Shown: in pieces, positions 4,575-60,942 of the stretch
Position numbering within the stretch: position 1 is the stretch's first letter
Layout: each line of letters opens with the position of its first letter
NCBI GenBank assembly: GCA_052033505.1
Contig: JBPOJN010000002.1
Coordinates: 7,769-71,768 of the forward strand
Origin: Myxococcota bacterium
GTDB lineage: Bacteria; UBA10199; JACPAL01; GCA-016699445
Reading direction: 5' to 3'
DNA: 64,000 nt
The notes under the pieces: model-generated
Seen by the model: only the letters and a program-made list of their open reading frames with translations
Told to the model about the DNA's origin: nothing
Databases searched by the model: none
Translations under genes and position numbers: made by a program

Positions 4575-4619
4575 AGGGGCGCTTGGGTATCATGCCACTT
4601 GGGAAGAAAGTAGGATTTT

Positions 4620-7082: not shown

Positions 7083-7143
7083 GACCGGGCTTATCGCGGA
7101 GCATATTTATTAGTTTCCGAATTTTTTAAGATTTCAAAAGCCG

Positions 7144-9240: not shown

Positions 9241-9315
9241 AAGCGTGTCTCCTTTAGAGGGCGATAGGGCGCCGGAGGTTAGCAGAAAAATCGGCGGTAC
9301 GACAAGGGAACGTCT

Positions 9316-11859: not shown

Positions 11860-11979
11860 AAGACATCCCCCGATGATGTGTGAAAGTGTAACAGGAAACT
11901 GAAGGGCCCCACAACATCGGGTTAAGTATTTGCCGTTATTTTTTTCGAAATGAGAAATATCGTATTATAAGATGAATAA

Positions 11980-13221: not shown

Positions 13222-13264
13222 CGAGATCCGGGTAAAATCACCGTTCGATTTTAAAAGGAGGCCT

Positions 13265-14881: not shown

Positions 14882-14943
14882 GAAACCGAAAAATTCCTTT
14901 TTTTCGTCTCGACTTCCCTCTTTCGCGAATATAGGTTTTTTGG

Positions 14944-26546: not shown

Positions 26547-26784
26547 AAGTGTTTCCCTCGTTTCATCTCTCTTGCGGCTACGTGCGGCGGCGATTTTTTG
26601 CAATCCGAAAAATGGATGGGGTCGTCCGGGTTTCGAACTGGTTCGCATATATCGAGCAATATCCTCTCATTATTTCATGGCCCGCCATTTGCTTTGATTG
26701 TGAAAGCTTTGCGGGGCACCATGTATTTGCAGCTTAGACAGGAATTCCTTCTTGACCATGACCCCTTTAAAGGGGACACTCGCT

Positions 26785-27102
26785 ATGGGCATTAAAGTTG
26801 TTTATTACGAAACCGCCCGCGGCGACCACCCGGTGAAGGATTATATCGAAGATCTCCCTGATCGCGAGCGGGCTAAAGTGGTGGCTTTGGTCGATTATTT
26901 GTCCGAAAAAGTCGTGCTTCATGAGCCTCAGGCCAAGAAGTTGTCGGGTTATCCCGGTCTTTGCGAATTGAGGCCCGGAAGCCATCGGGTCTTTTATTGT
27001 TATCATGAGGGTAAGGTGGTGCTGCTTCACGCTTTTCGTAAAAAATCCAATAAGACGCCTATTAGAGAATTAGAGACGGCCTTTTACCGGATGAAGGAAT
27101 AA
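26785..27102 (+). CDS. Type II toxin, RelE/ParE superfamily, phage Gp49/HigB-like (COG4679-type).
   Basis: KVVYYETARGDHPVKDYIEDLPDRERAKVVALVDYLSEK…LSGYPGLCELRPGSHRVFYCYHEGKVVLLHAFRKKSNKTPIRELETAFYRMKEY closely fits the HigB/Gp49 toxin consensus (…GLYELR…RVLYF…IVLLHGFxKKTQKTP…E). The start is taken at the internal ATG 26785; the ORF-track start is 26752. Confidence 0.8.
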   Translation: MGIKVVYYETARGDHPVKDYIEDLPDRERAKVVALVDYLSEKVVLHEPQAKKLSGYPGLCELRPGSHRVFYCYHEGKVVLLHAFRKKSNKTPIRELETAFYRMKE

Positions 27103-30160: not shown

Positions 30161-30793
30161 ATGCTCAAAAGCTTCGACGACTTCCTGGCCGACAGCAACG
30201 ATCGCGGACACGTGATCGGGACCTGGGGTTTTCACTCCAACGTCGATTTTACGCGCATGCGGTCGGAAGAAACCAACGTCTGGTTTTTCGAGCAGATGTT
30301 CAATTTCCTGCGCGCGTTTTTCGGATTGGTCCTGCCAGATTCCCTCGAAATCATCACGCACAACGCGACCCAGCGCATTGAACGCAAAAACCTCGATCAA
30401 ATGACCTTTCTCGACGAGCTCATGTTGATCATGAAGAAATTGAAAGAACCGATGTGGACCGCGAAGCTGAACCTGAACATCATCGGTCTCCTGCGGACAG
30501 CGCACGATCCCGAGCATCCGATCCGTTTGCAGATCCAAGAACCCACGTCGTTCATCTGCTGGGGAGGCCCGGACGAGACGGGATTCCAGAATTTTTCGAT
30601 CGGTTACACTCTCTTCTCTTCGACCGTCCTGCAAGGCGACCACATGGAATTATGGTCGATGAATCAGCCGATTTTAGAAAAAGCTTTGAGGAAATGGGAA
30701 GAACAGACCGGCCGCATGATCGAGGTCGTGGATTCAACAGGCGGTGCGCCGGTGCATCGGTATGGATTCGGACGCGGTGGGAAGAAACGTTAA
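30161..30793 (+). CDS. Hypothetical protein (210 aa).
   Basis: ORF with coding-like composition and no recognised motif. It converges on the PP2C gene (4-nt overlap of stops). Confidence 0.45.
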   Translation: MLKSFDDFLADSNDRGHVIGTWGFHSNVDFTRMRSEETNVWFFEQMFNFLRAFFGLVLPDSLEIITHNATQRIERKNLDQMTFLDELMLIMKKLKEPMWTAKLNLNIIGLLRTAHDPEHPIRLQIQEPTSFICWGGPDETGFQNFSIGYTLFSSTVLQGDHMELWSMNQPILEKALRKWEEQTGRMIEVVDSTGGAPVHRYGFGRGGKKR

Positions 30794-32502
30794 GTCTGCC
30801 GTCTCACAACTCTCATTCCACGTGATGTGATTCTTTCGGCCGTGTTGTCGCCGCCATCGCGAACTTTTTCCAAAGGACGATAGGCCAATGGCCACTGTTT
30901 AGACTCTGATTCTCCGTTAGCCTCAGGTACGATGATGACCAGCAAGGTGCGGTTGTCGTTGACCGGTGGCGGCAGAACGATGCCGCTTAATGCCTGCGAG
31001 GCCTGGGAGAGTTCGGGGCTCTGACTCAGAGGTTCGCTCGGGCGATGAATGAGATGGTCGATCACTTTCGCAAATTCGTGTGCCGGAACCACGTGTAAGA
31101 TCTGTTCGAATATCTTAAAAAGATCCCGGTGCGGAAAATTGCGATGAAAATGCCTGCGGATTTCAGAGGAAAGGTGCGTCTCGAAATGCTCGATCAAACT
31201 TCCCGCGAGACCGTCTGACATTGCCACTACGATGCTGCCGGCTTTCGCTTTAGCGCGGTAGATCTTAGGGTTGCGCTGCAATGCGGAATTCGTGATGTAT
31301 TTTTCCGGAGATACCTGTGCATCGGTATAGCCTTCGATACGCACCGTTTCTTCCTCGAAGACAAAAAGAAATAAGGGTGAATCTCCGGACGAGGCGATGC
31401 TCATTTCCTCGTTAACGATCAAAAAGCTCGTCGCGACCGTGTTAGGAGTAGACCGTTCGTCGTCTGCGTCGATTTCCGAGGTGTGAAAACGCGACTGACT
31501 TTCTGTCGCCAGGCTGCCAGCATCATGAACGTCTTCAATGAGGGGCAATCGGTTTTCGCGGAGATGTTTCAAAAGTTCAGCGTGACTTCCTTGGCAAAAA
31601 GCGCTTGAAGCCACTTCGCCAATCGCATTGCCCCCCACTCCATCAGCGACAATCCCGTAAGACACCGTATCGCCGGACTGAGTGACGAAATGAGAATAAA
31701 ATAAACTGTCCTCTTGATGGGCGCGGCCTCCGGTGAGCGTGAATCCATAGACTCCGGCCTGTTCGTCGAGAATCCGAGCTTCGGCGCCCCCGCCCACGAT
31801 GCGAGCCTTGCCGTATTTCACAAAGGCTAGGGCCTTTAAGTCCACTTCCTGGTCGATATACGATACAATTTTTTCGGTACGGGGATTGGTACCGCCAAAA
31901 TAAAGGCTTCGCGGAGTTCCATGAGTGACCGTGGGCTTTGAAGCGCGATGCGGAACTTCCTCTAACATTTGTGATATTTGATAAAGCCTGGGTTGATCTT
32001 TCGTGTGAAGAATTCCCCCGCATAGCAGGTGAGTCATTCCTATTTCGAGTGCGTAAAGAGCAAGTTCTGCGTGATCAGGATGGTTTAGAAAAAAAAGACT
32101 TCCTGACTTCATCAAGGACGGTGCGAGATAGGTAGATTCCAGCCATAGCCCTAGATATTTTTTTTTCACATATTCGTCGACATTGACTGTCGGCAACTTG
32201 AGATCCGAAAGCGCATGATAGTGTAAGTTCAGCTCAGGGCCTCTGATCACGAGACTTGTTGCATCGCTTGCCGCATCGCAGCGAAGTGCCAAAGGAGGTT
32301 TGATGCCCGCGGCGAAGGTCAATCTAGGGATTTGGGTCTTTTCAAAAGACGCTATGCCGGAATCACCGCGTAACCCCAGCCATTCGACTAAAAAAAGGTT
32401 GGGATCGTTAGGTAATCCAAGATTCTCAGAAATTAATCGCTCTCTACGAGAAATAGAGGGCAATCGGCTCAGATTTCGTAATGCCAAAGGCGTCCAATGC
32501 AT
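30790..32502 (-). CDS. PP2C-family (PPM) Ser/Thr protein phosphatase with a ~220-aa N-terminal domain of unknown function.
   Basis: The C-terminal half carries PPM motifs: GVYGFTLTGGRAHQEDSLF, GIVADGVGGNAIGEVAS, TVATSFLIV, ASSGDSPLFL and VAMSDGL. Confidence 0.75.
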   Translation of the reverse strand: MHWTPLALRNLSRLPSISRRERLISENLGLPNDPNLFLVEWLGLRGDSGIASFEKTQIPRLTFAAGIKPPLALRCDAASDATSLVIRGPELNLHYHALSDLKLPTVNVDEYVKKKYLGLWLESTYLAPSLMKSGSLFFLNHPDHAELALYALEIGMTHLLCGGILHTKDQPRLYQISQMLEEVPHRASKPTVTHGTPRSLYFGGTNPRTEKIVSYIDQEVDLKALAFVKYGKARIVGGGAEARILDEQAGVYGFTLTGGRAHQEDSLFYSHFVTQSGDTVSYGIVADGVGGNAIGEVASSAFCQGSHAELLKHLRENRLPLIEDVHDAGSLATESQSRFHTSEIDADDERSTPNTVATSFLIVNEEMSIASSGDSPLFLFVFEEETVRIEGYTDAQVSPEKYITNSALQRNPKIYRAKAKAGSIVVAMSDGLAGSLIEHFETHLSSEIRRHFHRNFPHRDLFKIFEQILHVVPAHEFAKVIDHLIHRPSEPLSQSPELSQASQALSGIVLPPPVNDNRTLLVIIVPEANGESESKQWPLAYRPLEKVRDGGDNTAERITSRGMRVVRRQT

Positions 32503-36400: not shown

Positions 36401-37129
36401 CTAACCCTTCGGCCAGTACACTTCGTTTCCGTCCTTCCCCAGTACGCATTTCACGCACAAGAGATGTCCATGGTCTTTCCGTATGATTTTCCGGTCGAAG
36501 ATCGGCGTGCACACGCCTTGTTCCCGCCGTGCGGACGGGGCGCGTAGAAGTTGAGCGCCTTGATCATGGCATTGGATCGCCAAGCTTTGACAATAGGGAT
36601 AGCCGGATTCTTCCCCGGGATTTTCCTGAGAAAGCAGCTTCCTGCGTTCGAGATTTTTTTGCTCCGCGGCACTCAGCAGATCTACCGCCTTGTCCGTCAC
36701 CAATCTTAAGGAAACGATCTTGAGATCGATCGAGACGGGGCCCCGCGCGATCTCTTCCTTCATGAAAATTCGTTTGTGGTAGAGCGATTCGGCGACCGAC
36801 GTGTCTTTCGTTTCGGCGGCATAGAGCACGGGGAAGCTTCCGTCCGAATAGCGGCTTTTATACCAATTTTGCGGCAAAAATTTCGACGAGATTTCTTCTT
36901 GGATGATCTGATCCGTCGATCGTCCCAAGACCCTTTCCAGCCGATCCATGGTTTCCGGAAAATTTTCGCAGTAATAATTCGACTTCAACCCCTCGCGTTC
37001 GCGCGCGTCGTCGAGCAAATCGTCGAAGAGTTCCTGTGAGGGATGGGCGGTCGAGAACGCGCGGAAGGCGTCCCTGTCGTAGGTGACGAAATCGAAAACA
37101 AAGGGCTTATCTTCAACGAGTGCGTTCAT
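36401..37129 (-). CDS. RES-domain toxin (MbcT/ParT-like, predicted NAD+-consuming toxin).
   Basis: …SRYSDGSFPVLYAAETKDTSVAESLYH… carries the R…Y…E…S…H pattern of the RES domain. The gene lies immediately downstream of, and overlaps by 17 nt, a DUF2384/Xre-like antitoxin gene. Confidence 0.75.
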   Translation of the reverse strand: MNALVEDKPFVFDFVTYDRDAFRAFSTAHPSQELFDDLLDDAREREGLKSNYYCENFPETMDRLERVLGRSTDQIIQEEISSKFLPQNWYKSRYSDGSFPVLYAAETKDTSVAESLYHKRIFMKEEIARGPVSIDLKIVSLRLVTDKAVDLLSAAEQKNLERRKLLSQENPGEESGYPYCQSLAIQCHDQGAQLLRAPSARREQGVCTPIFDRKIIRKDHGHLLCVKCVLGKDGNEVYWPKG

Positions 37130-37517
37130 GGTCTAAGTACCGCCGGATCGCGGAGATGCCAGTCTTGCCGTCGGTGAGCATGATGTCCAAGGCGGAGTGT
37201 CCGCCGAAGCGTTCGCGCGGGACCTTGATCCAGCGGTAAACTAAGTCACGCTGGTTCGGAAATAAGATGCGTAGGGATTTGTGGATGTTCAGCAGGTCTT
37301 GGACCCTTTCGAATTTATCGCGATCAAAGGGTAGGGAGTGGCCTTTGTACAGATTGTCGATGCGGGTGCGGTGGATTTTATAGCTCCAGCCCAAGAGCTG
37401 CGCGATTTCTTCGTTCGAGAGTTCCCAGTGCTCCATCAAACGGCAAAACGCCTTGCTGAAAACGGGATGTTTCTCTGCGTTCGTCACGGATTCAGGTTCC
37501 GGAATCACAAGTCCCAT
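37113..37517 (-). CDS. Xre/MbcA/ParS-type antitoxin (DUF2384 toxin-binding domain).
   Basis: Has an HTH-like N-terminus (…WELSNEEIAQLLGWSY…). The C-terminal …FGGHSALDIMLTDGKTGISAIRRYLDHERTR matches the DUF2384 consensus (GGxSPLxLLxTxxGxxxVxxxL…). Confidence 0.75.
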   Translation of the reverse strand: MGLVIPEPESVTNAEKHPVFSKAFCRLMEHWELSNEEIAQLLGWSYKIHRTRIDNLYKGHSLPFDRDKFERVQDLLNIHKSLRILFPNQRDLVYRWIKVPRERFGGHSALDIMLTDGKTGISAIRRYLDHERTR

Positions 37518-48559: not shown

Positions 48560-49189
48560 ATGATTTTAGCCTGCTTGGATTTGGAAGGGGTCTTGGTCCC
48601 CGAAATCTGGATCAACTTCGCCGAAAAGACCGGCATCGAGGAGTTGCGTCTCACGACGCGCGACATTCCGGACTACGACGTGCTGATGAAGAAGCGGCTG
48701 AAGATCCTGGCCGATCATAAATTGAAATTAAAGGACATCGAAGAAGTCATCGGTACGCTCGAGCCGCTGGAAGGCGCGAAGGAATTCCTCGAACGTCTGA
48801 GGTCTTCTTTCCAGGTCGTTATTCTCTCCGACACGTTCTACGAATTCGGCATGCCTTTGATGAAACAATTGGGGTTTCCGACGTTGTTTTGTCACTCGTT
48901 GGGGATCGGGCCCGATGGATCGGTGACCGACTACCGGCTGCGTCTTCAAGACCAGAAGAAAAAAGCCATCGATGCCTTTCGCGCGCTTAACTTCAAAACC
49001 ATCGCTGCTGGCGACTCCTATAATGATACGTCGATGCTCAGCGCTGCAGATCACGGGATTTTATTCTGTCCTCCCGATAATGTGAAAAAAGAGTTCCCAC
49101 AATTTCCGGTTGCGATGGACCATCCCAAGCTTTGGGAACATTTTGAGTGGTATCAGAAAGAGTTGACATTATCGACCCGGCGAGTTTGA
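48560..49189 (+). CDS. thrH: Phosphoserine phosphatase/homoserine phosphotransferase ThrH (HAD family).
   Basis: MILACLDLEGVLVPEIWINFAEKTGIEELRLTTRDIPDYDVLMKKRLKILADHKLKL…FQVVILSDTFYEF…QLGFPTLFCHSL is nearly collinear with Pseudomonas ThrH (MEIACLDLEGVLVPEIWIAFAEKTGI…TTRDIPDYDVLMKQRL…). Confidence 0.85.
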   Translation: MILACLDLEGVLVPEIWINFAEKTGIEELRLTTRDIPDYDVLMKKRLKILADHKLKLKDIEEVIGTLEPLEGAKEFLERLRSSFQVVILSDTFYEFGMPLMKQLGFPTLFCHSLGIGPDGSVTDYRLRLQDQKKKAIDAFRALNFKTIAAGDSYNDTSMLSAADHGILFCPPDNVKKEFPQFPVAMDHPKLWEHFEWYQKELTLSTRRV

Positions 49190-49229: not shown

Positions 49230-50498
49230 ATGAAGGTACTGTACCTGAGTTCTGATTTGCCGTGGCCGGTCACTTCGGGTTGTCGTTCTGCCCTCCATAA
49301 TCACCTCATGGAGATCTCTCAAGAAGGGAGTATTCTAAGAGAGATGGGGGTGGTAGATGATGCTCCCTCGCAGCGGGATATTTTTGAGAAAGAACTTCGA
49401 GCCAGGAATATTCATCTCCATCTCTTTCAGCGGAAAGTCAGCAAGCTTTCGCAAGGGTCACGATCCAATTTTCTGCGCGATTTGTTTTCCGTCCCATTTT
49501 TCTTTCTTACCTCTCGGTTTCCGATCGCCTACAGAGCGCGGCAAAATCCAGAAGCCTTGAAGAAGATCAAGGATTTGCTGGCGGAAAATGAATTTGACTT
49601 GATTGTCATTGACCACATCAATGCCGTCGCTCTCCTGCCTCCCGGACTTTTTTTGCCGACTCTTTACATCAGTCACAACGCCGAGTCCGTGATCTCGCGA
49701 TCACGTTATCGGAATTATCCGTTATGGCATCCTTTTCGATTTTTATTTTTTGTCGAATACCTCAAAAATTGTCATCTGGAACGGTTTGTTTGTTCCAGCG
49801 TTGACAGAATCGTCTGCATTTCGTCTGCGGATGTAGAGACACTAAAAACTTTTGCCATGGATTCAAAAAAATCCCCGTCGATCGCATGCTGTCCTGAGCG
49901 AGTCCTAATGAAGAATGCGTGGCGCGGGAGTTTCGGGGGGAAGGATTTACTGTTCGTCGGCCCCATTAAGTTTTTTGCAAATCAAGAGGCTCTTTTTTGG
50001 ACGGTTGAAAAGTTAATGCCGGCTCTTTGCGAGAGTGCTCCTGACGTGCGGCTTTTGGTCGCAGGAACGACGCGGGATGAATTTCTGAGCCGGGGAGGAC
50101 GAACGTCCCCGCATGTTCAATTTTTTGGATTTGTGTCTGAAGCCGAGTTGGATCGTCTCTATCAGGATTGTGATCTTCTCATTTCTCCGACCAAACACAG
50201 TTCAGGCATTAAAATGAAGGTGCTGGACGCGATCTCTCATGGCACGCCTATTGCCGGTACGCCGGAGTCTTTTTCGGGCATCGATTTTCTTTCGGAAATT
50301 TTACGGATCGATCGATCGAATGTCGATAAAAGTGCGAAGGATATTTTGTCTCTTCTTCAGACGCCTGAAAATTTAAAAGAAATAAGCCGAAGTATGAGGA
50401 GCAATTTAGAAAAATTCCTTTTGCGACGGAAAGGGTTGATTCGCCATATGAGGGAGCTCTCCGGCGTGGAGGAATTCTCTATTTCTTTAGTAGGATGA
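49230..50498 (+). CDS. Glycosyltransferase (GT-B fold, GT4-like).
   Basis: The C-terminal domain carries …LLVAGTTRDEFLS…VQFFGFVSEAELDRLYQDCDLLISPTKHSSGIKMKVLDAISHGTPIAGT (the E-x7-E-like region of GT4). Lower GC than the flanking genes. Confidence 0.75.
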   Translation: MKVLYLSSDLPWPVTSGCRSALHNHLMEISQEGSILREMGVVDDAPSQRDIFEKELRARNIHLHLFQRKVSKLSQGSRSNFLRDLFSVPFFFLTSRFPIAYRARQNPEALKKIKDLLAENEFDLIVIDHINAVALLPPGLFLPTLYISHNAESVISRSRYRNYPLWHPFRFLFFVEYLKNCHLERFVCSSVDRIVCISSADVETLKTFAMDSKKSPSIACCPERVLMKNAWRGSFGGKDLLFVGPIKFFANQEALFWTVEKLMPALCESAPDVRLLVAGTTRDEFLSRGGRTSPHVQFFGFVSEAELDRLYQDCDLLISPTKHSSGIKMKVLDAISHGTPIAGTPESFSGIDFLSEILRIDRSNVDKSAKDILSLLQTPENLKEISRSMRSNLEKFLLRRKGLIRHMRELSGVEEFSISLVG

Positions 50499-51198
50499 GT
50501 GTTTGCACCGCAGCCTGCGAGCTTCCCACGAGGAGTTCTTCTTGGAGCCCGACAATTTTTAAGGGAATAAATTCCGGACACCCGCAGAGTTCCGATGGGT
50601 CGCCGTGGATCAAATCCATGCCGCTTTCTTCGATGAGCCATCGGAGGGAAATATTTTTACCCCATTGATTGGTTTCTTTTTCGGAAAACGGCGCGAGATC
50701 CAGGAAGAGATCGACGGTCAGGATGAAAAGGCCGCCTGGTTTTAAAATGCGTCTGACGTGTTTGAGAATGCTTAAGATATCCGGCTCGGGGATGTGTTCC
50801 AGAACGGAGACGCTGACGCCACGATCAAAGTCATTGTCTTTGAGGTTGGCCTCTTCAATGAAACCGGGGAACAGTGTGACCTGGGTGCCAAAGCGTCTGT
50901 TCAGAAGATCGAAAAACTTGGGTGTGATCGGCCAACCTCGGCCTCGTGCCTTTATGCCCGGATCTACGTTGATGACCTTAGCAGCCGGCATGATCGAGCG
51001 CAAATTGCAAACCGGCATTTCCTCCGCCGATCTCAAGGGTGCGTAATCCTTTTTGGGGCGCTGTCTTTTCAAATACCCAGGGGTATTCGAAGCGACGGGT
51101 TCGATTATTGTCTTGGAACGCGAACGGCCCGACAAGGCCGGCGAGTCCCGGTAGATGGCGCAATTTTTTTGGTACGACCCGGCGCGCCGCATGACCAT
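50479..51198 (-). CDS. Class I SAM-dependent methyltransferase.
   Basis: …RGVSVSVLEHIPEPDILSILKHVRRILKPGGLFILTV… is a Methyltransf_11-type motif. The N-terminal 165 aa of the ORF-track ORF (Arg-rich, low-complexity) are not credible, so the start is taken at ATG 51198 (MVMRRAG…). Confidence 0.6.
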   Translation of the reverse strand: MVMRRAGSYQKNCAIYRDSPALSGRSRSKTIIEPVASNTPGYLKRQRPKKDYAPLRSAEEMPVCNLRSIMPAAKVINVDPGIKARGRGWPITPKFFDLLNRRFGTQVTLFPGFIEEANLKDNDFDRGVSVSVLEHIPEPDILSILKHVRRILKPGGLFILTVDLFLDLAPFSEKETNQWGKNISLRWLIEESGMDLIHGDPSELCGCPEFIPLKIVGLQEELLVGSSQAAVQTLILLKK

Positions 51199-51233
51199 AG
51201 GGGGCGCGCCAACGACGGTTCCATGCCTTGTGT

Positions 51234-52715
51234 TCACGAGATAGAGTTTCGCGGAGCAACATGCTCGTCTCCTTTGAGAGTCTTTTGGAATAGTGCAAGC
51301 ACTAAGTAAATAGCGATGCCTGGCAAGAAAGAAACAATGAGAAGTGTCTGGTCTTTCAAGGTAGGAGACAGCGCTTTTTGCAGTAAAAGGCTGAAGCAAA
51401 ATCCGAAAACTCCAGAGACAAGAGTCCGCCAACTCTCCGGTGTGAAGAGGGCGACTCTGTGAATGCGTCGCGCCTCTACCACCGCGACGAGGCTGACCAG
51501 TAGGTAGGCGGTTCCTGCCGTCCCTGCGGCGCCCAGAAGACCGAAATGAAGGGTTGCTTTGCCTCCGACAACGGCTGCGGCCAAAAGAGTCAGCATGGTT
51601 GCGACCACGAGTCGGCCTGCCGATCTTGTAACCACAAGAAAGTAGAGAAACACGGAGGAGGTTGAATAAAGAAGCTGCGGTATGACCAGCCAAAGAAAGG
51701 TACCCGTCGAAATAAGTGCCGCATTTTTTCCCAAAAAACCGACAAGGTTTTTACTAAAAAAAATCAGAGTGAATCCGATGATGATATTGAGAAATAAAAT
51801 TTTTTCTAGTGATAGGCGGAGATGGCTTTTGAGAGACTCTCGATCTTTTCCTAAAAAAGATTCGGATGCGACCGGGACCAGTATCCCTCCGATGGCTTTT
51901 TTGGTCTGCGAGGCGATCCGTGCGATTTGTTTTGCCAGGCCGTACACCCCGATCAAGGATTGTTGCTCAGGGCTGCCGGATCCTAAAAATGTGGTGATCA
52001 GAAAAATGTCGGCGCGAAATAGGATATTGTCAAACCCTGAAAGCAAATACATCGGCAGCGAGTAATGCAAGAAGCTGAGGGGAAATTTTTGTTTTGGGAG
52101 CGCTTCCAGGACCTTTTTCCAAGAAAAAAAACGTTGAAACACGACCAAAGAAAGAAAGGCCACGACCAGGACTGTTAGAGCCTGAGAGAGGATGATCCCG
52201 CGATCTTTCCAGGGAGTGAGTCGAAAGATGAAGGCCAACGCAAGAAGCAACGCTGGCTCTACAACGCTCCTTAACAAGGCATTATATTTCATTTCTTTCA
52301 ACCCCATCGTGGCATTGAGGGCAATATTGCCCAGTGCAAAAAAAGGGACTGTCGGAACGAGGATATAGAGGGCGAGTTTTATATCCGGGGTATCGACGTA
52401 GAGATGGGTGTAGCCCAAGACGATGAGGGATTCGATACTGGTGATGAGAAAGGAGGCTTTAAAACTGGAAGATAACTTTTGATAGAGCTTTTCGGTTTGA
52501 TTGTGACGGTAGTGAGCCGTCTCGAAGAGGATGCTTTCGTCGATACCCAGAGCCCCAAAAAGCATGATGAGTTCCACGATGCTCCAGGCGATCGTGTAAA
52601 CGCCGAATTTTTCTGATCCGTAGAGTGCGATGGAGGAAAAGAAAAAAATGGCCCGACTGAATCGAAAGACATTTCCTATTAAATTTATCTTTATGCCAAG
52701 TAGAAGATCTTTCAT
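51234..52715 (-). CDS. Polysaccharide biosynthesis/export protein of the MOP flippase superfamily (Wzx-like).
   Basis: About 490 aa with 12-14 hydrophobic helices and Wzx-like topology. The ORF-track ORF start (53138) overlaps the divergent lipoprotein gene. The start is taken at ATG 52715 (or 52757). A poly-C9 tract (on the coding strand) lies at 52716-52724, immediately 5' of, or just inside, the start. Confidence 0.65.
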   Translation of the reverse strand: MKDLLLGIKINLIGNVFRFSRAIFFFSSIALYGSEKFGVYTIAWSIVELIMLFGALGIDESILFETAHYRHNQTEKLYQKLSSSFKASFLITSIESLIVLGYTHLYVDTPDIKLALYILVPTVPFFALGNIALNATMGLKEMKYNALLRSVVEPALLLALAFIFRLTPWKDRGIILSQALTVLVVAFLSLVVFQRFFSWKKVLEALPKQKFPLSFLHYSLPMYLLSGFDNILFRADIFLITTFLGSGSPEQQSLIGVYGLAKQIARIASQTKKAIGGILVPVASESFLGKDRESLKSHLRLSLEKILFLNIIIGFTLIFFSKNLVGFLGKNAALISTGTFLWLVIPQLLYSTSSVFLYFLVVTRSAGRLVVATMLTLLAAAVVGGKATLHFGLLGAAGTAGTAYLLVSLVAVVEARRIHRVALFTPESWRTLVSGVFGFCFSLLLQKALSPTLKDQTLLIVSFLPGIAIYLVLALFQKTLKGDEHVAPRNSIS

Positions 52716-52724
52716 GGGGGGGGG
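52716..52724. repeat. Homopolymeric G9/C9 tract at the 5' end of the flippase gene.
   Basis: ttcatGGGGGGGGGtggtct on the + strand. On the coding (minus) strand this reads …AGACCACCCCCCCCCATGAAAGAT…. Confidence 0.9.
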
Positions 52725-52805
52725 TGGTCTTGTGATTTTTCTTTCCTTCTCGATCATGGGTTTGATAGAAGGGCCAGCACTTTTATAAAAATCTAAGGAG
52801 AAATT

Positions 52806-53480
52806 ATGAAACGATTTTCGATTTTTGGCCTGACAGGCCTCGTCACGGCGGTTTTTGTCTTTGGGACGGGATGCGACGCCCTCAAAAACATGGTCGGCGG
52901 TAGGACCGAAGAGAGAAAAGCTGACGGCGTGAGTTCGGATCAGCCTGCCGATCAGAAATTGAAGGAACTCGAAGAGAAGATGAAGAAGATGGAAGACGAG
53001 GCCAAGGTGCGGATCGAGGCGGAAAATAAAGCCAATATGGAAGTGGAATTGAAAGCGAAGCTTGAGCAAGAGATCCGGGCGAAGATTGAGGCGGAGCAGA
53101 AAGTAGTCGCGACGCAGCCGGTGACACAACCCACGCAAAAAGTTGTGGAGCGTATCATCGTCAGAGACGCCCCGAAGACGACGGCTTCTGAGGCGCCTGC
53201 TAGGTTATCTGGTTACATTCATGTCTATACCGATAGCCAACTCTCAGGCAAAAACATGAGGCTCTCTTTTGGCCAAAATATGCACACCACCGATGGTACT
53301 GCGTTTAAGGACAATATCACGTCTTTCTCCTACCAGATTCCAGCAGGGTGGCAGGTCTCGCTCTATCAGGATACAGGATATTCGAACACTAGCTACGTTG
53401 TGAAAGGCACAGGCAGTCTCGGCCATCTTCCTGGCTACATGAACGATAAATGTTCGTCGATCCGATGGGAGAGAGAATAG
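52806..53480 (+). CDS. Secreted/lipoprotein with a central coiled-coil (E/K-rich) segment and a C-terminal globular domain.
   Basis: The RBS ctaaggagaaattATG is followed by MKRFSIFGLTGLVTAVFVFGTGC. A ~70-aa charged heptad-like stretch (KLKELEEKMKKMEDEAKVRIEAENKANMEVELKAKLEQEIRAKIEAEQK) is followed by a Tyr/Ser/Thr-rich domain. Confidence 0.65.
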   Translation: MKRFSIFGLTGLVTAVFVFGTGCDALKNMVGGRTEERKADGVSSDQPADQKLKELEEKMKKMEDEAKVRIEAENKANMEVELKAKLEQEIRAKIEAEQKVVATQPVTQPTQKVVERIIVRDAPKTTASEAPARLSGYIHVYTDSQLSGKNMRLSFGQNMHTTDGTAFKDNITSFSYQIPAGWQVSLYQDTGYSNTSYVVKGTGSLGHLPGYMNDKCSSIRWERE

Positions 53481-53655
53481 TTTTTTCTCTTCATTAAAGT
53501 CTGTTGTGATTCAAATCGTTTCTGCATTGAGAGCCGGGGCCTTTTTTTTTGCATCCTGCCTTTATATTGTGTTTCTGGCTCTTCTTCCTCGCCGTCTCTT
53601 TTGCCGTATTTTTGGCGCCATTGAAAGAAGAGCGCGGAGAGGTCGGCTTAAGACG

Positions 53656-54213
53656 ATGAGCTCTCACATTGCGGGAGCCAAGACGGTTTTAGATGTGGGT
53701 TCTGGGACTGGTAAGTTTGGTAAGATGATTGCCGACCATTTAGGCATTCAAGTCTCCGGTGTCGACGTGATCAACTACAGCGATGCGGAGATTCCTTTCC
53801 ATGTTTACGCCGGCAAAAATCTCCCTTTTGAGGACGCAAGCTTCGATGTTGTTCTTGCCGTCTTTGTCCTTCATCACTGTGCGGATCAGGAGCATATTTT
53901 TTCGGAGCTCATCAGAGTAGCGCGGAACAAGGTTGTCCTATTTGAAGACTCCTTCGAGTATGATTGGCAACGATGTTTTGTTCGGTGGAACGATTTTCAG
54001 TCGAATATTCTTCAGGGTAATATCAGGGTGTTCAAAGGATGGACCAAGTCGAGTATTCGCGGAATGCCCATGCCCTATACTTTTCGCTCGATACCGGGAT
54101 GGATCGACTTTTTTAAAAAGTTTCCTGTCAAAGTTTCCTCCATGACGAAGAATTATGCCTGTTTTAAGACCCTCACGCGCGTCGTCTTTTCTCTTCAAAA
54201 AGACATCCCTTGA
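53656..54213 (+). CDS. Class I SAM-dependent methyltransferase.
   Basis: TVLDVGSGTGKFGKMIADHL (motif I), …ASFDVVLAVFVLHHCAD… and …RVARNKVVLFEDSF (motifs II/III). The start is taken at ATG 53656; the ORF-track ORF extends to 53506 through a T9 tract. Confidence 0.7.
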   Translation: MSSHIAGAKTVLDVGSGTGKFGKMIADHLGIQVSGVDVINYSDAEIPFHVYAGKNLPFEDASFDVVLAVFVLHHCADQEHIFSELIRVARNKVVLFEDSFEYDWQRCFVRWNDFQSNILQGNIRVFKGWTKSSIRGMPMPYTFRSIPGWIDFFKKFPVKVSSMTKNYACFKTLTRVVFSLQKDIP

Positions 54214-54254
54214 AAATAGGAACCAAAGATTGAAAGAAAACGGCGGATGCGTTT

Positions 54255-55268
54255 GTGAAAGAAGAAATCATGACTGCAAGTTTAAAACTGGTGGAGGGGT
54301 ATAGGCATTTTAAGCATTGGATGGGGCGCATTGTGTTGCCGGATTCGCCCTCTTCCAGTTCCATTCCGTTCTTTGAGTACGCCAAATGGTTTCGGTTCAC
54401 TCGCTGGACGCCGGATTATCCCTATTCCATCGATATTCAAACGAAGAGCGGCTGCAACGCCCATTGCAGCTTTTGTCCGGTGGGAAAAGAAGAGAACAAG
54501 ATCTACGGCAGCATGAGTGATGAGCTTTTTAAGAAAATCGTCGATGAAGTGATCGATTTCCCTAGCTTACGACAAATCAGTCCGTATCTTTTGAATGACC
54601 CCTTGGTCGACAAGGGGCTTCCGGAGAAGATCGCATACATCGCCCAAAAAAGAGGTTCCCGCAGGACGCCGTTGATCAGGATCGTTACTAACGCTGGACT
54701 TTTGACAGAGGACATGGGGCACCGTCTGTTGGCAACTGAAGCGTTAGATGAGATCAACTTCAGTTTTCATTCTATCATACCTGACGTGTACGAAAAAATG
54801 ATGTCTCCCCTAAAGTATGATCGCGTCATGGGAAATATCGTTCGGTTTAAGAATCAATGGAACGAATACGCCGGGGAAAAACCCAAGCTGACTGTTTGGA
54901 CCGTTAAGACCAATCCGGTCATTGCGAATCTAAAAAATGAAAAGGCTTACTGGAAAAAAATGGGAATAGGTTTTAAGGCGCGAAAGCTGGACAATCGAGC
55001 CAACAAGGATATTGAGACTCTTGGCCTGGGTGATCGCGAGTTCGAGAATGTTTCCATGTGCGTTATTCCCTTTTGGAGAGCATGGGTGATGTGGAATGGC
55101 GACATGATTATGTGTTGCGTCGATCAAGAGAGGACAAATCTTTTGGGTAATTGTGAGAACCGATCCATTAAAGAAATTTGGAACGATCCTGCGTATCAGG
55201 CATTACGACATCGCTGGAGAAAGAAGGAATTGGGTGGGCTTCTTTGTGAAACTTGCAAGGGAACATAA
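54255..55268 (+). CDS. Radical SAM enzyme with a C-terminal Cys-rich SPASM/twitch-like extension.
   Basis: Has the CxxxCxxC motif TKSGCNAHCSFCPVGKE and a C-terminal Cys cluster (MCVIPF…MCCVDQERTNLLGNCENRS…LLCETCKG). Its stop TAA overlaps the ATG of the next gene (TAATG). Confidence 0.8.
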   Translation: MKEEIMTASLKLVEGYRHFKHWMGRIVLPDSPSSSSIPFFEYAKWFRFTRWTPDYPYSIDIQTKSGCNAHCSFCPVGKEENKIYGSMSDELFKKIVDEVIDFPSLRQISPYLLNDPLVDKGLPEKIAYIAQKRGSRRTPLIRIVTNAGLLTEDMGHRLLATEALDEINFSFHSIIPDVYEKMMSPLKYDRVMGNIVRFKNQWNEYAGEKPKLTVWTVKTNPVIANLKNEKAYWKKMGIGFKARKLDNRANKDIETLGLGDREFENVSMCVIPFWRAWVMWNGDMIMCCVDQERTNLLGNCENRSIKEIWNDPAYQALRHRWRKKELGGLLCETCKGT

Positions 55269-56182
55269 TGAAATTGGTTCGCGCCCTTTTTTTTCTCGGA
55301 TCTTTGGCAGCGATGGCTTTTGCTCCTCTTGGAGAAACCCAGGAAATCAAGTCTCCTCAAAAGCAAACACTGGAAGCATTGTTTCGAAAACTCTCTCAAA
55401 AATCTAAGGGCCGCTGGAGATTTGTCCGTAAAATCCCCCTTCAGTTCAAAACCTATCACCCGCAGGGTATGGTGAAAGTCGGTGCCGAATTCTACCTCTC
55501 CTCTGTTGAGATAACTGAGAAACCCATGCCGACTCTTTTTGAAGAGGAGCGCCTTCCCGGAAAAGGAGTGGGTCATCTTTTTCACTTCGACGGGCGTGGA
55601 CGTTTGGTGAAACAGACGACGCTTGGGAAAAACAACTGCTACCATCCCGGTGGTATCGATACGGATGGGACGTTTATTTGGGTGTCCCTCGCCGAGTATC
55701 GCCCTCAGAGTCGATCTATCATTTATAAGGTGAACCGGATGTCATTTGAGGCTCAGGAGGCTTTTACTGTCGCAGATCATATCGGAGGAGTTGCCTTCGA
55801 CCCAAAAGAGCAAAATCTCCACGGCCTGAGTTGGGATGCGCAGGCTTTTTATGTTTGGAAAACACAAGGCCAGCAAATGAGTCGAGTTCCGCAAGGCGGA
55901 GAAATCTGCAAGTACCAGGAGTGTCATTATGTGGGCAGTGGGGCGATGCTCTGCGGCGGCTTAAGTCAAGCGTATGATTCGCGCGGTAGTATAGCATTAA
56001 TCGATCTTACCGACCATAACCTCATTTCTCGGATCGATCCTCCCAAATTAGAAATGGCAGACATAGTTTTGACGAGAAATGCGATGACTTTTGAAATGTG
56101 GGGAAGGGGTCTAAGGTTTTATTTTGTTCCGGAGGACAACGTCTCTGCAGTGTATGTTTTAGATTTGGAGTTGGATCCTTGA
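55268..56182 (+). CDS. Secreted protein of unknown function (about 304 aa, beta-rich), with its start overlapping the stop of the radical SAM gene.
   Basis: Has the signal peptide MKLVRALFFLGSLAAMAFAPLG and 5 Cys (…NNCYHPGG…GEICKYQECHYVGSGAMLCGG…). Lower GC (~47%) than the downstream helD gene. Confidence 0.65.
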   Translation: MKLVRALFFLGSLAAMAFAPLGETQEIKSPQKQTLEALFRKLSQKSKGRWRFVRKIPLQFKTYHPQGMVKVGAEFYLSSVEITEKPMPTLFEEERLPGKGVGHLFHFDGRGRLVKQTTLGKNNCYHPGGIDTDGTFIWVSLAEYRPQSRSIIYKVNRMSFEAQEAFTVADHIGGVAFDPKEQNLHGLSWDAQAFYVWKTQGQQMSRVPQGGEICKYQECHYVGSGAMLCGGLSQAYDSRGSIALIDLTDHNLISRIDPPKLEMADIVLTRNAMTFEMWGRGLRFYFVPEDNVSAVYVLDLELDP

Positions 56183-58149
56183 TGATGCCCCTAACCGAAG
56201 AAAACATAGCCTCCATCGGTGCCGACGAAGAATCCCGCTGGCGGGACACGCACCAAGCGGTCATCGCCGAAATCCGGCGCACGACGCTGGACTACGAAGG
56301 CGACCGCCAGCTCGCGCGCGATTTGACCTCCCAGATCGTGGCGGCGACGCGCGACGAGGATAAGGCGGCACTGGCTTCCGACGAAGCCGTGGCTCATGGA
56401 TTGACGGCGCTCCGAAAAGACAAGACAGTCGGCCTCGACAGCTTGGTCGAAGCCCCGTATTTCGCGCGCGTCGTGACCGACGAAATTACCGAAGATGGCG
56501 AGAGCAAGTCCGTGGAGTTCCGACTCGGCACTGCGAGCTTCCCGGCCCAGCGCATCATCGACTGGCGGAAAGCCCCGATCAGCAAACTTTATTACGACTA
56601 CAAAGAAGGCGACGATTTCTCCGAAACGATCCAGGGCCGCGAGCGCGAGGGATTGATCAAACTCAGGCGTTCTTTCCACGGGAAGCGCGAAAACCTGCAA
56701 ATCATCGAAACCGCGCAGGGCACGATCGCCAAGCAGAACAACACGTGGAAGCTGAAAGACAAAGGCGAACCGATGTCGCGCACGTCGGGCCACGACGGAC
56801 ACCTGCCGCCGATCCTGTCGCTCATCACCGCGGAGCAGTTCGAACTCATCACGAAAGACGCGCGAAAGCCCATTGTGATCCAGGGCATCGCCGGCAGCGG
56901 CAAAACGACCGTCGCGTTACATCGGCTCGCGTGGTTGCTTCATGAAGATAATTCCAACGCCAAGGCCGAAAAATGCCTCGTCGTCATGCAGAGCCCGTCT
57001 CTGAAAGCCTATGTCGAAACCACGTTGCCGGAGCTGAAAGTCCCCGGCGTGCCGATCCGCACGTTTTCACAGTGGGCAGCGCGGTTGGTCACGGAACTCG
57101 TCGGCGCGCGTCCTTCCGGCATCCTCGAAAAAACCGTCGACCTTGAGCGTTTCAAATCTTCGGTCATCTGCCTCAAACTCATGAATCAATACGTCGAGGC
57201 GCATCCCGACCGGGATCTGACGGATTGGACCAAGGACTTGTTCCGCTTCTTCGAATTCGCCGCCGCCCAGGATATTTTCTGGCCGCGTTGGTCGGAAGTG
57301 CAACGGCAATTGAAAGACCAGATCGCCAAGCGCATCTGCGATGAGCAGGACGATGCCTTGTTGTTGCATCTGATCTATCTCGAAAAGGGATACTACCCCG
57401 TCAAAACGGACGCGAGTCTGGGCGTCTGCGACCACGTCGTAATCGACGAGGCCCAAGACTTCGGTTTGGTGGAGATCAAGGCGTTACTCAACGCCGTCGA
57501 CCAGAAGCGCACGGTCACGATCGTCGGCGACATCGCGCAGAAAATCGTCGCGGGACGGAATTTCGAAAGCTGGGAAGAAGTCTTGCGAGACGCCGGTTTC
57601 GAGAACACGACGCCGCTGGAGCTCACCGTCTCTTACCGCACCACGCGCGAGATCATGCAGTTGGCCGCCAAACTCAGGACGGGATCCCAAAAACTCCCGA
57701 CGAACGCGCAACAAGCCCGCAGCGGTCCAATCCCGGGTTATTTCAAGACGAATTCCGAAGCGGCTCTACCGAACATCATTGCGAGCTGGATTCAGGCGCG
57801 CCAGGCCGAAAATCCCGGCGCGTTGTCCGCCGTCGTGTGCCGCCATCCGAAGGAAGCTGAGACCCTCACGCAGGAATTGCGCAAATTAGGTTTGCCTTCG
57901 GTGCGTTTCGGCCATCGCGAGCAATTCGATTTTTCGCCGGGAGTCGTGATTACGAGCATTCACCAGGTCAAAGGCTTGGAGTTCCGCAATGTGCTCGTCG
58001 TCGAACCGTCCGAGGAAAATTATCCTTCGGATGACGAAGGCCGCAATCTCCTGTATGTTGCGACGACGCGGGCCGAAGTCAGGCTCGATTTCGCGGGTAC
58101 CCAAGCCCCGATGTCGCTCTTGCCCGTCTTGCCTAAAGGAGCTTTTTGA
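56182..58149 (+). CDS. helD: UvrD/REP superfamily 1 helicase, HelD-like (RNA-polymerase-associated helicase IV family).
   Basis: Walker A IVIQGIAGSGKTTVALHRL, motif II HVVIDEAQDF, …VSYRTTREI… and motif VI TSIHQVKGLEFRNVLVV are present. The N-terminal region contains a HelD-like PYFARV element. Its ATG overlaps the upstream TGA (TGATG). Confidence 0.65.
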   Translation: MMPLTEENIASIGADEESRWRDTHQAVIAEIRRTTLDYEGDRQLARDLTSQIVAATRDEDKAALASDEAVAHGLTALRKDKTVGLDSLVEAPYFARVVTDEITEDGESKSVEFRLGTASFPAQRIIDWRKAPISKLYYDYKEGDDFSETIQGREREGLIKLRRSFHGKRENLQIIETAQGTIAKQNNTWKLKDKGEPMSRTSGHDGHLPPILSLITAEQFELITKDARKPIVIQGIAGSGKTTVALHRLAWLLHEDNSNAKAEKCLVVMQSPSLKAYVETTLPELKVPGVPIRTFSQWAARLVTELVGARPSGILEKTVDLERFKSSVICLKLMNQYVEAHPDRDLTDWTKDLFRFFEFAAAQDIFWPRWSEVQRQLKDQIAKRICDEQDDALLLHLIYLEKGYYPVKTDASLGVCDHVVIDEAQDFGLVEIKALLNAVDQKRTVTIVGDIAQKIVAGRNFESWEEVLRDAGFENTTPLELTVSYRTTREIMQLAAKLRTGSQKLPTNAQQARSGPIPGYFKTNSEAALPNIIASWIQARQAENPGALSAVVCRHPKEAETLTQELRKLGLPSVRFGHREQFDFSPGVVITSIHQVKGLEFRNVLVVEPSEENYPSDDEGRNLLYVATTRAEVRLDFAGTQAPMSLLPVLPKGAF

Positions 58150-59415: not shown

Positions 59416-60942
59416 ATGCGCAAAATTCCGGCGACCATGGCAACGCAGCATCCGGACAACGCGAACGCGCCGTATTGGAGCGACACGCCCTTCGTTTCGA
59501 CCGGGGACGAGGTCGAGGAATGTTACCGCGTGTTTTCGGACTTGGGATGCGACGAATATATGTGGGACTGGGAAGGGAAGTTCGTCGACGAGGCCGTCGT
59601 CGACCGGCTCTTCAACAAATACGAATCTTACTTCCGTAAACATCAGTTGGGCCGAGACAAGTTCTTAACCTTCCGCGTGCCCAATATCTGGAAAGAAAGC
59701 GGCTTTCGGCTCGCGCGTTCGTACATGACGATCATCACGGCGGCTCATACGGCGGCCGAGTACGGCATGCACACGCAGCCGATCTTCGAAGTCATCTTGC
59801 CTATGACGACGGAGGCTAAACAGCTGATCGCCATATTGGAAAAATACCGGAATGCGCTCAAATACGAGCGCGCGATCTTCGAGAAACCCGTGGCCGGGGA
59901 CGGAACGCTCGAAATGATCCCGCTGATCGAAGGCAGCGCGACGTTGTTACACTCTAAAAAAATCCTGAAGGACTACGTCGTGCGCTACCAAAAACTCTGG
60001 AAGCGGAAACTGCCTTATCTCAGGCCGTTCATCGCGCGTTCCGATCCGGCGCTGGACGCGGGCTTCGTTCCCGCGGTGCTTTCCGCGCGCGGCGCGATCT
60101 CCGAGTATTATCGATTCGAGGAAGAATCGGGGATCCCCGTCTATCCGATCATCGGCGTTGGCAGTCCTTTGTTCCGCGGCGGACTTTCGCCCGTGAATAT
60201 TGATTCTTTTTTGGAGAACTACGCCGGCGTGCGTACCGTCACGATCCAATCGGCGTTCCGTTATGACTACCCGATGGCTCAGGTCAAAAAGGCGATGGCG
60301 CGCTTGAACCGTGAGTTGCCTCGGAGGCGTCCGTCGCGTTTCACCGAATCGCAGATTCGCGAGATCTTGAAATTTTCCGAACATTTCGCCGCGCACTACC
60401 GGCCCGTAGTGATGAAGCTCTCTCCCGTGATCAACGATCTCGCGCGGTTTATACCGTCTCACCGGGAGCGCATCCCACATACGGGACATTTCGGTTATTC
60501 GCGCCAAATGAATTCCAAGGCTGGCCAGAAAATCAGTCTGCCGCGCGCGATCTCTTTCGTGGCGACCCTGGCTTCGCTGGGTATTCCTCCGTCGATCTTG
60601 GGCACCGGGCGGGGATTGAAGACCCTCCTTAAATCCGGCGTGACGGAGAAAAAAATATTCGGGTACCTGCCGACGCTCCTCGAAGACTTGAGCCGTATCG
60701 GTGCGTACCTCAATTGGGAAAACCTGAAATTCCTGATACGGAAAAATCCCGATTGGAAACCCGTGCTCGAAGACGTGAAGTTCTTGGAGGAATTTTTAGG
60801 GCGGCGTTTGGGACCTCAGACGCACGAGGAATACATCCATCGTAACCTGACTTCGAACATCTACCATTACTGGCAGCGCGGCGAAGAGGACGTACGTGGG
60901 GCCATTCTGCAGGCCGCGCGCGTCCGGAGGAGCTTGGGATGA
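59416..60942 (+). CDS. ppcA: Archaeal-type phosphoenolpyruvate carboxylase (PEPcase type 2).
   Basis: MRKIPATMATQHPDNANAPYW… matches the distinctive N-terminus of archaeal-type PEPC (IP..M.TQHPDN). The length (~510 aa) also fits. Confidence 0.75.
   Translation: MRKIPATMATQHPDNANAPYWSDTPFVSTGDEVEECYRVFSDLGCDEYMWDWEGKFVDEAVVDRLFNKYESYFRKHQLGRDKFLTFRVPNIWKESGFRLARSYMTIITAAHTAAEYGMHTQPIFEVILPMTTEAKQLIAILEKYRNALKYERAIFEKPVAGDGTLEMIPLIEGSATLLHSKKILKDYVVRYQKLWKRKLPYLRPFIARSDPALDAGFVPAVLSARGAISEYYRFEEESGIPVYPIIGVGSPLFRGGLSPVNIDSFLENYAGVRTVTIQSAFRYDYPMAQVKKAMARLNRELPRRRPSRFTESQIREILKFSEHFAAHYRPVVMKLSPVINDLARFIPSHRERIPHTGHFGYSRQMNSKAGQKISLPRAISFVATLASLGIPPSILGTGRGLKTLLKSGVTEKKIFGYLPTLLEDLSRIGAYLNWENLKFLIRKNPDWKPVLEDVKFLEEFLGRRLGPQTHEEYIHRNLTSNIYHYWQRGEEDVRGAILQAARVRRSLG

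Follow-up and report, generated by a model that had tools for sequence, protein, structure and literature searches.

A low-GC block of envelope-type genes, probably acquired by replacement between thrH and helD, in an uncultured Myxococcota bacterium

Surface-polysaccharide loci are exchanged between conserved flanking genes, as exemplified by the O-antigen locus of E. coli, between galF and gnd, and by the pneumococcal cps locus, between dexB and aliA. A block that invites comparison with them lies at positions 49230-56182 of the stretch analysed here, a 64,000-nucleotide (nt) piece of contig JBPOJN010000002.1 from a Myxococcota bacterium (assembly GCA_052033505.1), hereafter the window, whose positions are used throughout. 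As in the O-antigen and cps loci, the block is lower in guanine plus cytosine (GC), its conserved flanks enclose differing content, no integrase, tRNA or attachment-site (att) repeats accompany it, and it contains a glycosyltransferase and a putative Wzx-type flippase. Unlike these loci, it spans only about 7 kilobases (kb), its seven genes include no priming phosphoglycosyltransferase, polymerase (Wzy), chain-length regulator or sugar-nucleotide genes, and the alternative content found in relatives is non-glycan (OsmC, a chromate transporter, toxin-antitoxin pairs). Its content thus does not fit a Wzx/Wzy locus, nor do its mobility features fit a classical integrative island. An earlier note on this DNA had considered it consistent with a horizontally acquired cassette for a surface glycan or for glycoprotein modification, inserted between thrH and helD. 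The best overall explanation, to which we give a probability of about 0.62, is that the block was acquired in a single event, replaced earlier content and has an envelope-glycoconjugate function.

The gene order is hemN(-), hemE(-), thrH(+), GT4(+), MT1(-), flippase(-), lipoprotein(+), MT2(+), rSAM(+), DUF6454(+) and helD. The native left side consists of hemN(-), hemE(-) and thrH(+), and the native right side of helD, an M48 protease gene and a gene for an archaeal-type phosphoenolpyruvate (PEP) carboxylase. The block and its immediate neighbours are as follows:

48560..49189, plus strand: thrH, bifunctional phosphoserine phosphatase/homoserine phosphotransferase (NF010109, 2e-94)
49230..50498, plus strand: GT4-type (GT-B fold) glycosyltransferase of 422 amino acids (aa) (Pfam Glyco_trans_1_4, 9e-16; Glycos_transf_1, 1.4e-8)
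50479..51262, minus strand: MT1, class I S-adenosylmethionine (SAM) methyltransferase with a 1-nt frameshift (Methyltransf_11 after joining)
51234..52715, minus strand: MOP-superfamily (Wzx/Polysacc_synt-like) flippase by distant homology, 493 aa (507 aa from 52757)
52806..53480, plus strand: lipoprotein with a signal peptide then Cys23, a Lys/Glu-rich coiled coil and a C-terminal beta/gamma-crystallin-like domain
53506..54213, plus strand: MT2, intact class I SAM methyltransferase (Methyltransf_11, 2.6e-14, profile positions 1-90)
54270..55268, plus strand: radical SAM (rSAM) enzyme of 332 aa with a C-terminal SPASM/twitch auxiliary-cluster domain (Pfam Radical_SAM, SPASM)
55268..56182, plus strand: secreted DUF6454 protein with a signal peptide, a five-bladed beta-propeller (PF20055, 1.8e-58)
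56182..58149, plus strand: helD, of the RNA polymerase recycling motor family (NF041464, 1e-56, below the family cutoff)

This list agrees with the genes named in the earlier note, except that MT1 is split by a frameshift and that the assignment to Wzx is based on distant homology.

Evidence for replacement comes from synteny. Eight related contigs or loci were found via HelD, which is 70-81% identical between them and the window and is followed by an M48/Ste24 protease gene in both. Four of them (L001, L097, L098 and L104) carry the order thrH, a hypothetical protein (206-212 aa), a lipoprotein (240-256 aa), a transmembrane (TM) protein, OsmC, ChrA and helD, with hemE on the minus strand upstream wherever the contig extends that far; as variants, L104 has a PIN/PhdYeFM toxin-antitoxin pair instead of ChrA, and L097 has an extra GST. 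The right part of that same order is present in L100, whereas L002 reads hemE(-), OsmC, helD, M48, and L102 and L103 have other genes followed by OsmC, helD and M48. The genes for GT4, MT1, the flippase, MT2, the rSAM enzyme and DUF6454 are absent at this locus in all eight relatives, and no copy or remnant of the displaced genes was found anywhere in the 64-kb window. On the native left side, thrH is 73-75% identical to that of L097 and L098, and on the right side the HelD proteins of L001, L097, L098, L100 and L104 are 75-81% identical to that of the window. Since the HelD of L097 is 81% identical to that of the window and 79% to that of L001, the window is as close to L097 as L001 is; it follows that the window is no outgroup and that the derived arrangement is the one found there. 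The block is thus a replacement of the segment running from the hypothetical protein through the lipoprotein, TM protein and OsmC to ChrA at a variable locus, and not a plain insertion: a foreign block does lie between thrH and helD, as had been proposed, but it took the place of other genes. In our judgement, it is highly probable that the block is an acquisition which displaced earlier content.

Base composition points the same way. The GC fraction is 0.478 over the block vs 0.552 across the remaining window, and among all windows of 6,953 nt in the 64 kb the lowest value, also 0.478, is found at a start of 49140; the lowest window of that size that does not overlap the block has 0.521, with a mean elsewhere of 0.548 and a standard deviation of 0.014. 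In a sliding profile, GC falls from 0.55-0.59 to 0.44-0.50 between ~49.0 and ~56.1 kb, with a bump of 0.52-0.55 inside the block at 50.7-51.7 kb. The GC content of third codon positions (GC3) is 0.679 +/- 0.055 in the backbone genes (n=44), and in the block it is 0.487 for GT4, 0.530 for the flippase, 0.527 for MT2, 0.544 for the rSAM gene and 0.482 for DUF6454, which corresponds to z-scores of -2.4 to -3.6 for these five genes (-3.5 for GT4); the values for MT1 (0.617) and the lipoprotein gene (0.604) are higher. Block and backbone differ in GC3 (Mann-Whitney, p = 2.8e-6) and in codon-usage distance (p = 1.3e-5). These computations bear out the description of the segment as low in GC, indeed the lowest 7-kb stretch, and show that its codon usage deviates; the view that all its genes are visibly lower in GC holds by GC3 for five of the seven, with MT1 and the lipoprotein gene deviating less, and the flanks, put by eye at ~60% GC, measure 55-59%. 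Composition with codon usage and synteny had both been named in advance as tests that might refute horizontal acquisition, and both favour it.

The two edges of the block differ. The right edge is sharp and lies exactly at the start of helD, where GC3 rises from 0.42 to 0.75 (helD itself has 0.74) and where the stop codon of the DUF6454 gene (TGA, 56180-56182) shares its A with the helD start codon (ATG, 56182-56184) in the sequence TGATG, so that overlap and GC3 jump agree with the boundary first assigned by eye. The left edge is less distinct: along thrH, GC3 drops from 0.80 to 0.45, and the same fall, although weaker, is also present in relatives. Between the thrH stop and the GT4 ATG lie 40 nt that include AAGGAG. 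This tight spacing, with a 40-nt gap and ribosome-binding site after thrH and, at helD, overlapping stop and start codons, suggests that the plus-strand genes of the block are transcribed through together with the native operon, and the genes from MT2 to DUF6454 are packed tightly enough that they could be co-transcribed with helD. Scans for promoters and terminators around the block returned chance-level matches only and were uninformative.

No mobility signature accompanies the block. Pfam and NCBIfam revealed no integrase or transposase domain among its genes, the only tRNA in the window is at 20856, 28 kb away, and an Rfam scan of 47.5-57.5 kb had no match. The flanking direct repeats that it had been suggested to look for proved, like att-like repeats, to be at chance level. 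Plasmid similarity was limited to an 88-nt match within a DUF6454 gene of a haloarchaeal megaplasmid, and the anti-phage defence models of PADLOC, run on the seven proteins, recognised just a generic methyltransferase domain in MT2. The most likely route is therefore homologous recombination within or beside the conserved flanks, over an integrase-driven element, and the block would have entered as one piece in or near those genes. As to a possible source, the exact-sequence cluster of each block protein has 1-3 members, drawn only from the source contig, L013 and two short contigs. A donor-like composition is seen at L020, which carries a 75%-identical rSAM gene with a GC3 of 0.537 in a locus of GC 0.463.

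Whether the exchange took place in one event or two turns on the lipoprotein. The block may be viewed as a mosaic, with a left module of GT4, MT1 and flippase, the lipoprotein in the middle, and a right module of MT2, rSAM and DUF6454. The lipoprotein, whose C-terminal domain weakly matches beta/gamma-crystallin and Inhibitor_I36, corresponds in position to a homologue in each of L001, L097, L098 and L104; it had been counted as cargo of the island, and this shared position shows that it is not simply that. The leading alternative, which we regard as a lesser but serious possibility, is accordingly that two independent acquisitions flank a retained native, fast-evolved lipoprotein gene, with GT4-MT1-flippase replacing the hypothetical protein on the left and MT2-rSAM-DUF6454 replacing TM-OsmC-ChrA on the right. 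Besides the matching position, the lipoprotein GC3 is between the values of the block and the backbone, the modules lie on either side of it and partly on opposite strands, and the rSAM gene, 76% identical to genes of other phyla, clearly has its own history, whereas GT4 and DUF6454 lack close homologues. However, the window lipoprotein is only 36-41% identical to the copies of the relatives, which are 63-73% identical to one another, and the copy of L001, an equally distant lineage by HelD, keeps 64-71% identity to those of the other relatives. A search of 1.84 billion representative proteins found its closest homologues in P0372 and P0373 (53% and 42% identical by BLASTP), with which it groups and which are only 27-35% identical to the lipoproteins of the relatives; the latter group with P0375. 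By these identities the window lipoprotein is a member of a different subfamily from the copies of the relatives, which favours a single exchange of the whole thrH-to-helD interval. Moreover, two clean, remnant-free replacements flanking one gene would require more coincidence than one exchange. We therefore hold that the block was probably exchanged in a single event.

As for function, the left module combines a glycosyltransferase, a broken methyltransferase and a distant flippase. No homologue of the GT4 enzyme was detected in any relative or any rSAM-family locus. In MT1, an N-terminal part with motif I (LEIGGGNAG...DHAG) begins with the ATG at 51262 and is cut off by a stop codon at 50980-50978, and the remainder (AKVINVDPG...) runs in the +1 frame to 50479, which places the frameshift at ~50980-50990. 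Once joined, the two parts cover positions 1-95 of the Methyltransf_11 profile, of which the annotated ORF (open reading frame) covers just 29-95. MT1 is full-length only after this conceptual repair, and an intact frame was found for MT2 but not for MT1, so that one of the two SAM methyltransferases originally counted stands and the other is frameshifted. At the frameshift site, the Logan assembly L013 (ERR14173714) is identical to the NCBI contig of this metagenome-assembled genome (MAG). The flippase has no Pfam match, and its NCBIfam match to WZX_like (6e-5) is far below cutoff; it does have at least nine strongly hydrophobic segments and is 23-25% identical (tblastn E 1e-22 to 1e-25) to Polysacc_synt-positive flippases that lie beside rSAM orthologues. 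Its first assignment as Wzx thus survives as a putative MOP-type flippase, by distant homology.

In the right module, MT2 has 185 aa if translation starts with the ATG at 53656, and 235 aa if it starts with the GTG at 53506. Gene callers picked 53656, though callers disagree, and the frame is open upstream of that ATG (53506-53655), where it encodes a strongly hydrophobic segment of 50 residues; MT2 may thus be membrane-anchored, or 53506-53655 may be a separate small ORF. The DUF6454 protein has 1,562 homologues in very diverse taxa, the best of which are only 44-47% identical, and one homologue lies at a different locus in the same MAG as L098. Its AlphaFold2 (AF2) model (pLDDT 88) is a five-bladed propeller whose best folds in the PDB are the papaya and Zymomonas glutaminyl cyclases, with 13% identity and TM-scores of 0.54-0.57 on the query and 0.66-0.68 on the target. 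Like the plant/bacterial-type glutaminyl cyclases (Glu_cyclase_2; PDB 2iwa, 2faw, 3nol), it is a secreted five-bladed propeller; unlike them, it belongs to a separate Pfam family of unknown function. Membership in Glu_cyclase_2 was rejected, with an hhalign probability of 7.5% and DUF6454 as the sole Pfam assignment, and the likeness is in fold only. A literature search found no paper mentioning DUF6454.

The rSAM enzyme is the most informative member of the block. Across 33 homologues, its C62x3C66x2C69 motif is invariant, as are C264, C282, C283, C326 and C329, and the twitch domain is matched by NCBIfam NF033640 at 2.5e-7. The only PDB sequence match is BtrN (2.6e-9, residues 54-148, the core motif region), and a Foldseek search with the AF2 model (pLDDT 81) ranks BtrN first (E 1e-11, TMt 0.69) and DesII second (2.5e-11), closely followed by the peptide-modifying SuiB and anSME, with EpeE also among the matches. 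BtrN, the 2-deoxy-scyllo-inosamine dehydrogenase of butirosin biosynthesis, and DesII, a TDP-4-amino-4,6-dideoxyglucose deaminase, are rSAM enzymes acting on cyclitols and nucleotide sugars. In common with them, the enzyme of the block has the CX3CX2C motif and, at its C-terminus, a short Cys-rich auxiliary-cluster domain, but it is only 14-18% identical to them (TM-score ~0.53-0.69) and its family has a conserved 50-residue N-terminal extension without a counterpart. Features of B12 binding or of methylases are absent. The proposal that an rSAM enzyme together with methyltransferases would yield an unusually methylated product is thus not borne out, the nearest matches of the rSAM enzyme being a dehydrogenase and a deaminase. 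Aminotransferase genes adjoin some rSAM orthologues.

Orthologues 60-76% identical to this enzyme are encoded in many phyla, including Calditrichaeota, Gammaproteobacteria and Acidobacteriota MAGs, and in L024 the orthologue (8001-8978) has a GC of 0.467 vs 0.584 for its locus, a contrast which suggests that the gene has been transferred repeatedly. Gene neighbourhoods were compared in 80 metagenome loci and four further contigs, the loci with an rSAM at least 40% identical being taken as orthologue loci (n=37). A homologue of CDP-alcohol phosphotransferase, often fused to an NTP-transferase, lies beside the rSAM gene in ~27 of these 37, and the other recurrent neighbours are GT4, a MOP flippase, a 250-aa class I methyltransferase, MlaC-DUF3047, MMPL and OEP. 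The closest rSAM homologue, P0002 (76% identical), lies in L107, within a cassette at 3013-17002 that comprises Aldedh, an NTP-transferase/CDP-alcohol phosphotransferase fusion, GT4, rSAM, NTP-transferase(-), HAD(-), CDP-alcohol phosphotransferase, a Polysacc_synt flippase, MMPL and MlaC-DUF3047. The same conserved cassette is also found at L020, L023, L028, L040 and L047, in many phyla. Its triad of NTP-transferase, CDP-alcohol phosphotransferase and HAD corresponds to a cluster in Bacteroides vulgatus and Prevotella that has been proposed to make inositol lipids by a Kennedy-type pathway and for which no rSAM is reported; the paper is without any mention of one (PMC9246714). A literature search found no paper on a cluster of rSAM, CDP-alcohol and flippase genes, and the rSAM-centred cassette appears to be undescribed so far. 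It is likely to be a pathway for a polar lipid head group.

As in the L107-type cassette, a flippase (25% identical to that of the cassette), a GT4-superfamily enzyme and a class I methyltransferase stand alongside the rSAM gene in the block, although the NTP-transferase, HAD, MMPL and MlaC-DUF3047 genes are absent from the window and its GT4 and methyltransferases show no detectable orthology to those of the cassette. A conserved trio of MT2, rSAM and DUF6454 is not supported either: homologues of MT1, MT2, GT4 and DUF6454 were sought by tblastn in the 80 rSAM-family loci and none was found nearby, which leaves the methyltransferase-rSAM-propeller trio as a weak lead only. The neighbourhoods support envelope glycoconjugate or lipid head-group chemistry for the rSAM enzyme, and do not extend to a pathway for this block. 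In the mechanism proposed here, GT4 would glycosylate an acceptor linked to lipid, on the cytoplasmic side, the rSAM enzyme would oxidise or remodel a hydroxyl or amine of a sugar or cyclitol, MT2 would methylate the product of that step, and the flippase would take the product to the periplasmic face, where DUF6454 would act, unless it stands outside the pathway. The genes downstream to ~64 kb are unrelated. Since the block has no priming transferase, polymerase or CDP-alcohol phosphotransferase, and since MT1 is broken, it is either an add-on for decorating a glycoconjugate that other parts of the genome supply, or a partly decayed set. The surface-glycan cassette first proposed accordingly fits in its GT4, MOP flippase, methyltransferase and sugar/cyclitol-type rSAM enzyme, but it is not self-sufficient. 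A glycoconjugate or lipid head-group function stands, in our view, at about even odds. A more ambitious proposal, which we advance only tentatively, is that the rSAM gene marks a widespread undescribed pathway for envelope polar-lipid or glycolipid head groups, of which the block would be a cut-down module (GT4, methyltransferase, flippase and periplasmic propeller) decorating a lipid made elsewhere; that pathway may consist of Kennedy-type CDP-alcohol modules, GT4, a BtrN/DesII-like rSAM enzyme that remodels a sugar or cyclitol head group, a flippase and MMPL/MlaC-DUF3047 export, and may range from Calditrichota to Gammaproteobacteria.

A different product is conceivable for the right module. 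MT2, rSAM and DUF6454 could form a system that modifies a peptide or protein, akin to those of ribosomally synthesised and post-translationally modified peptides (RiPPs) or to the maturation of a secreted protein, and not a glycan. SPASM rSAM enzymes are typically peptide maturases, which SuiB, anSME and EpeE illustrate among the fold matches, and DUF6454 joins a glutaminyl-cyclase-like fold to a signal peptide; in addition, in a distant rSAM branch (31-34% identity, L088-L095), a true Glu_cyclase_2 gene and a class I methyltransferase gene adjoin the rSAM gene in 6 loci. L088-L095 are, however, one related lineage and amount to one observation only, DUF6454 and Glu_cyclase_2 show no significant similarity when their profiles are compared, and the neighbours of DUF6454 homologues elsewhere are unrelated. 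Furthermore, the two best folds and the sole PDB sequence match of the rSAM enzyme are the sugar/cyclitol enzymes BtrN and DesII, the orthologues at or above the 40% threshold all occur with CDP-alcohol phosphotransferase, GT4, flippase or lipid-transport genes and none with peptide genes, and no precursor-like small ORF or RiPP recognition element (RRE) was noticed in the intergenic sequence at 53.4-54.3 kb, where no systematic search was run. We therefore consider a peptide-modifying role improbable, and retain envelope-glycoconjugate chemistry as the preferred function of the block.

Several observations weigh against a single acquired block with an envelope function. As to origin, a donor locus matching the block in gene order was not found, and a recombination breakpoint within thrH was considered and is not demonstrable, the relatives having similar, if weaker, gradients in GC3 and identity. 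The mild GC3 deviation of MT1 and the lipoprotein gene (0.60-0.62) means that parts of the block could differ in history. The two assemblies that agree, the NCBI MAG contig and Logan ERR14173714, may share reads. As to function, the proposed pathway is built wholly from domain families and from gene neighbourhoods in other genomes. By tblastn, the 64-kb window holds no CDP-alcohol phosphotransferase, although this is the most constant partner of the rSAM gene, and the only window genes with counterparts in L107 are the rSAM gene (76%) and, distantly, the flippase (25%). DUF6454 homologues elsewhere (two loci) do not lie beside rSAM or methyltransferase genes, and their neighbours are unrelated. 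The weakest alternative, that the block is ancestral and was lost in the sampled relatives or is an assembly chimera, its low GC reflecting weak expression, AT-biased drift or mis-assembled DNA of another organism, can draw on data that come wholly from metagenome assemblies, on two agreeing assemblies that may derive from the same reads and on the AT-richness common in accessory envelope genes, but is very unlikely. Eight relatives, seven of them with OsmC-helD, lack every biosynthetic gene of the block, which would require repeated loss; the junctions lie 0-40 nt from native genes, the left one with a ribosome-binding site and the right one with overlapping stop and start codons; and a homologue of the lipoprotein of the lineage sits mid-block at the expected place, an arrangement that a chimera would not create.

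Gene turnover in this region is not limited to the thrH-helD interval. Two relatives carry a minus-strand block between helD and M48, at 11979-19094 of L097 and 5343-12169 of L100, which is lacking in the window as well as in L001, L098 and L104. In L097 its genes encode proteins of 425 aa and 316 aa, a 1077-aa HATPase_c-like protein and a 507-aa PD40/Flg_new_2 protein, the first three of which had no match in PADLOC; the counterpart in L100 has genes of 321 aa, 1050 aa and 509 aa, with smaller ORFs alongside. This block and the toxin-antitoxin pair of L104 together reveal a gene-turnover hotspot on either side of helD. Other differences nearby include the archaeal-type PEP carboxylase gene of the window (PF14010 PEPcase_2, 59416-60942, plus strand), which directly follows M48 and is absent there in the relatives examined, and a Gp49/HTH pair that lies just downstream of M48 in L098. 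Elsewhere in the window, a Gp49-like (HigB-type) toxin gene is found at 26752-27102 on the plus strand (PF05973, 2.9e-18), and a RES-domain toxin (PF08808, 1.8e-17) with an Xre/MbcA/ParS-type antitoxin (PF09722) at 36401-37517 on the minus strand, in a second, smaller patch of lower GC (36-38 kb, ~0.50). A 570-aa protein with a weak PP2C phosphatase match is encoded at 30790-32502 on the minus strand; its gene has the lowest GC3 of the backbone (0.515) and lies within the second-lowest 7-kb stretch (start 30802, GC 0.521).

The block is, in sum, real but ordinary: an acquired accessory set of envelope genes for which a glycan or glycolipid function is plausible, and a clean, well-controlled example of locus replacement in an uncultured lineage. 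It also shows that genes turn over on both sides of helD, where relatives have a chromate transporter, toxin-antitoxin pairs or a block of four genes instead. Beyond the lead offered by its rSAM family, which is strongly conserved across phyla, the block itself adds little. Any real novelty may lie in the rSAM-centred cassette of other genomes, and the chemistry of this rSAM-CDP-alcohol cassette could reveal a new head group of bacterial membrane lipids.

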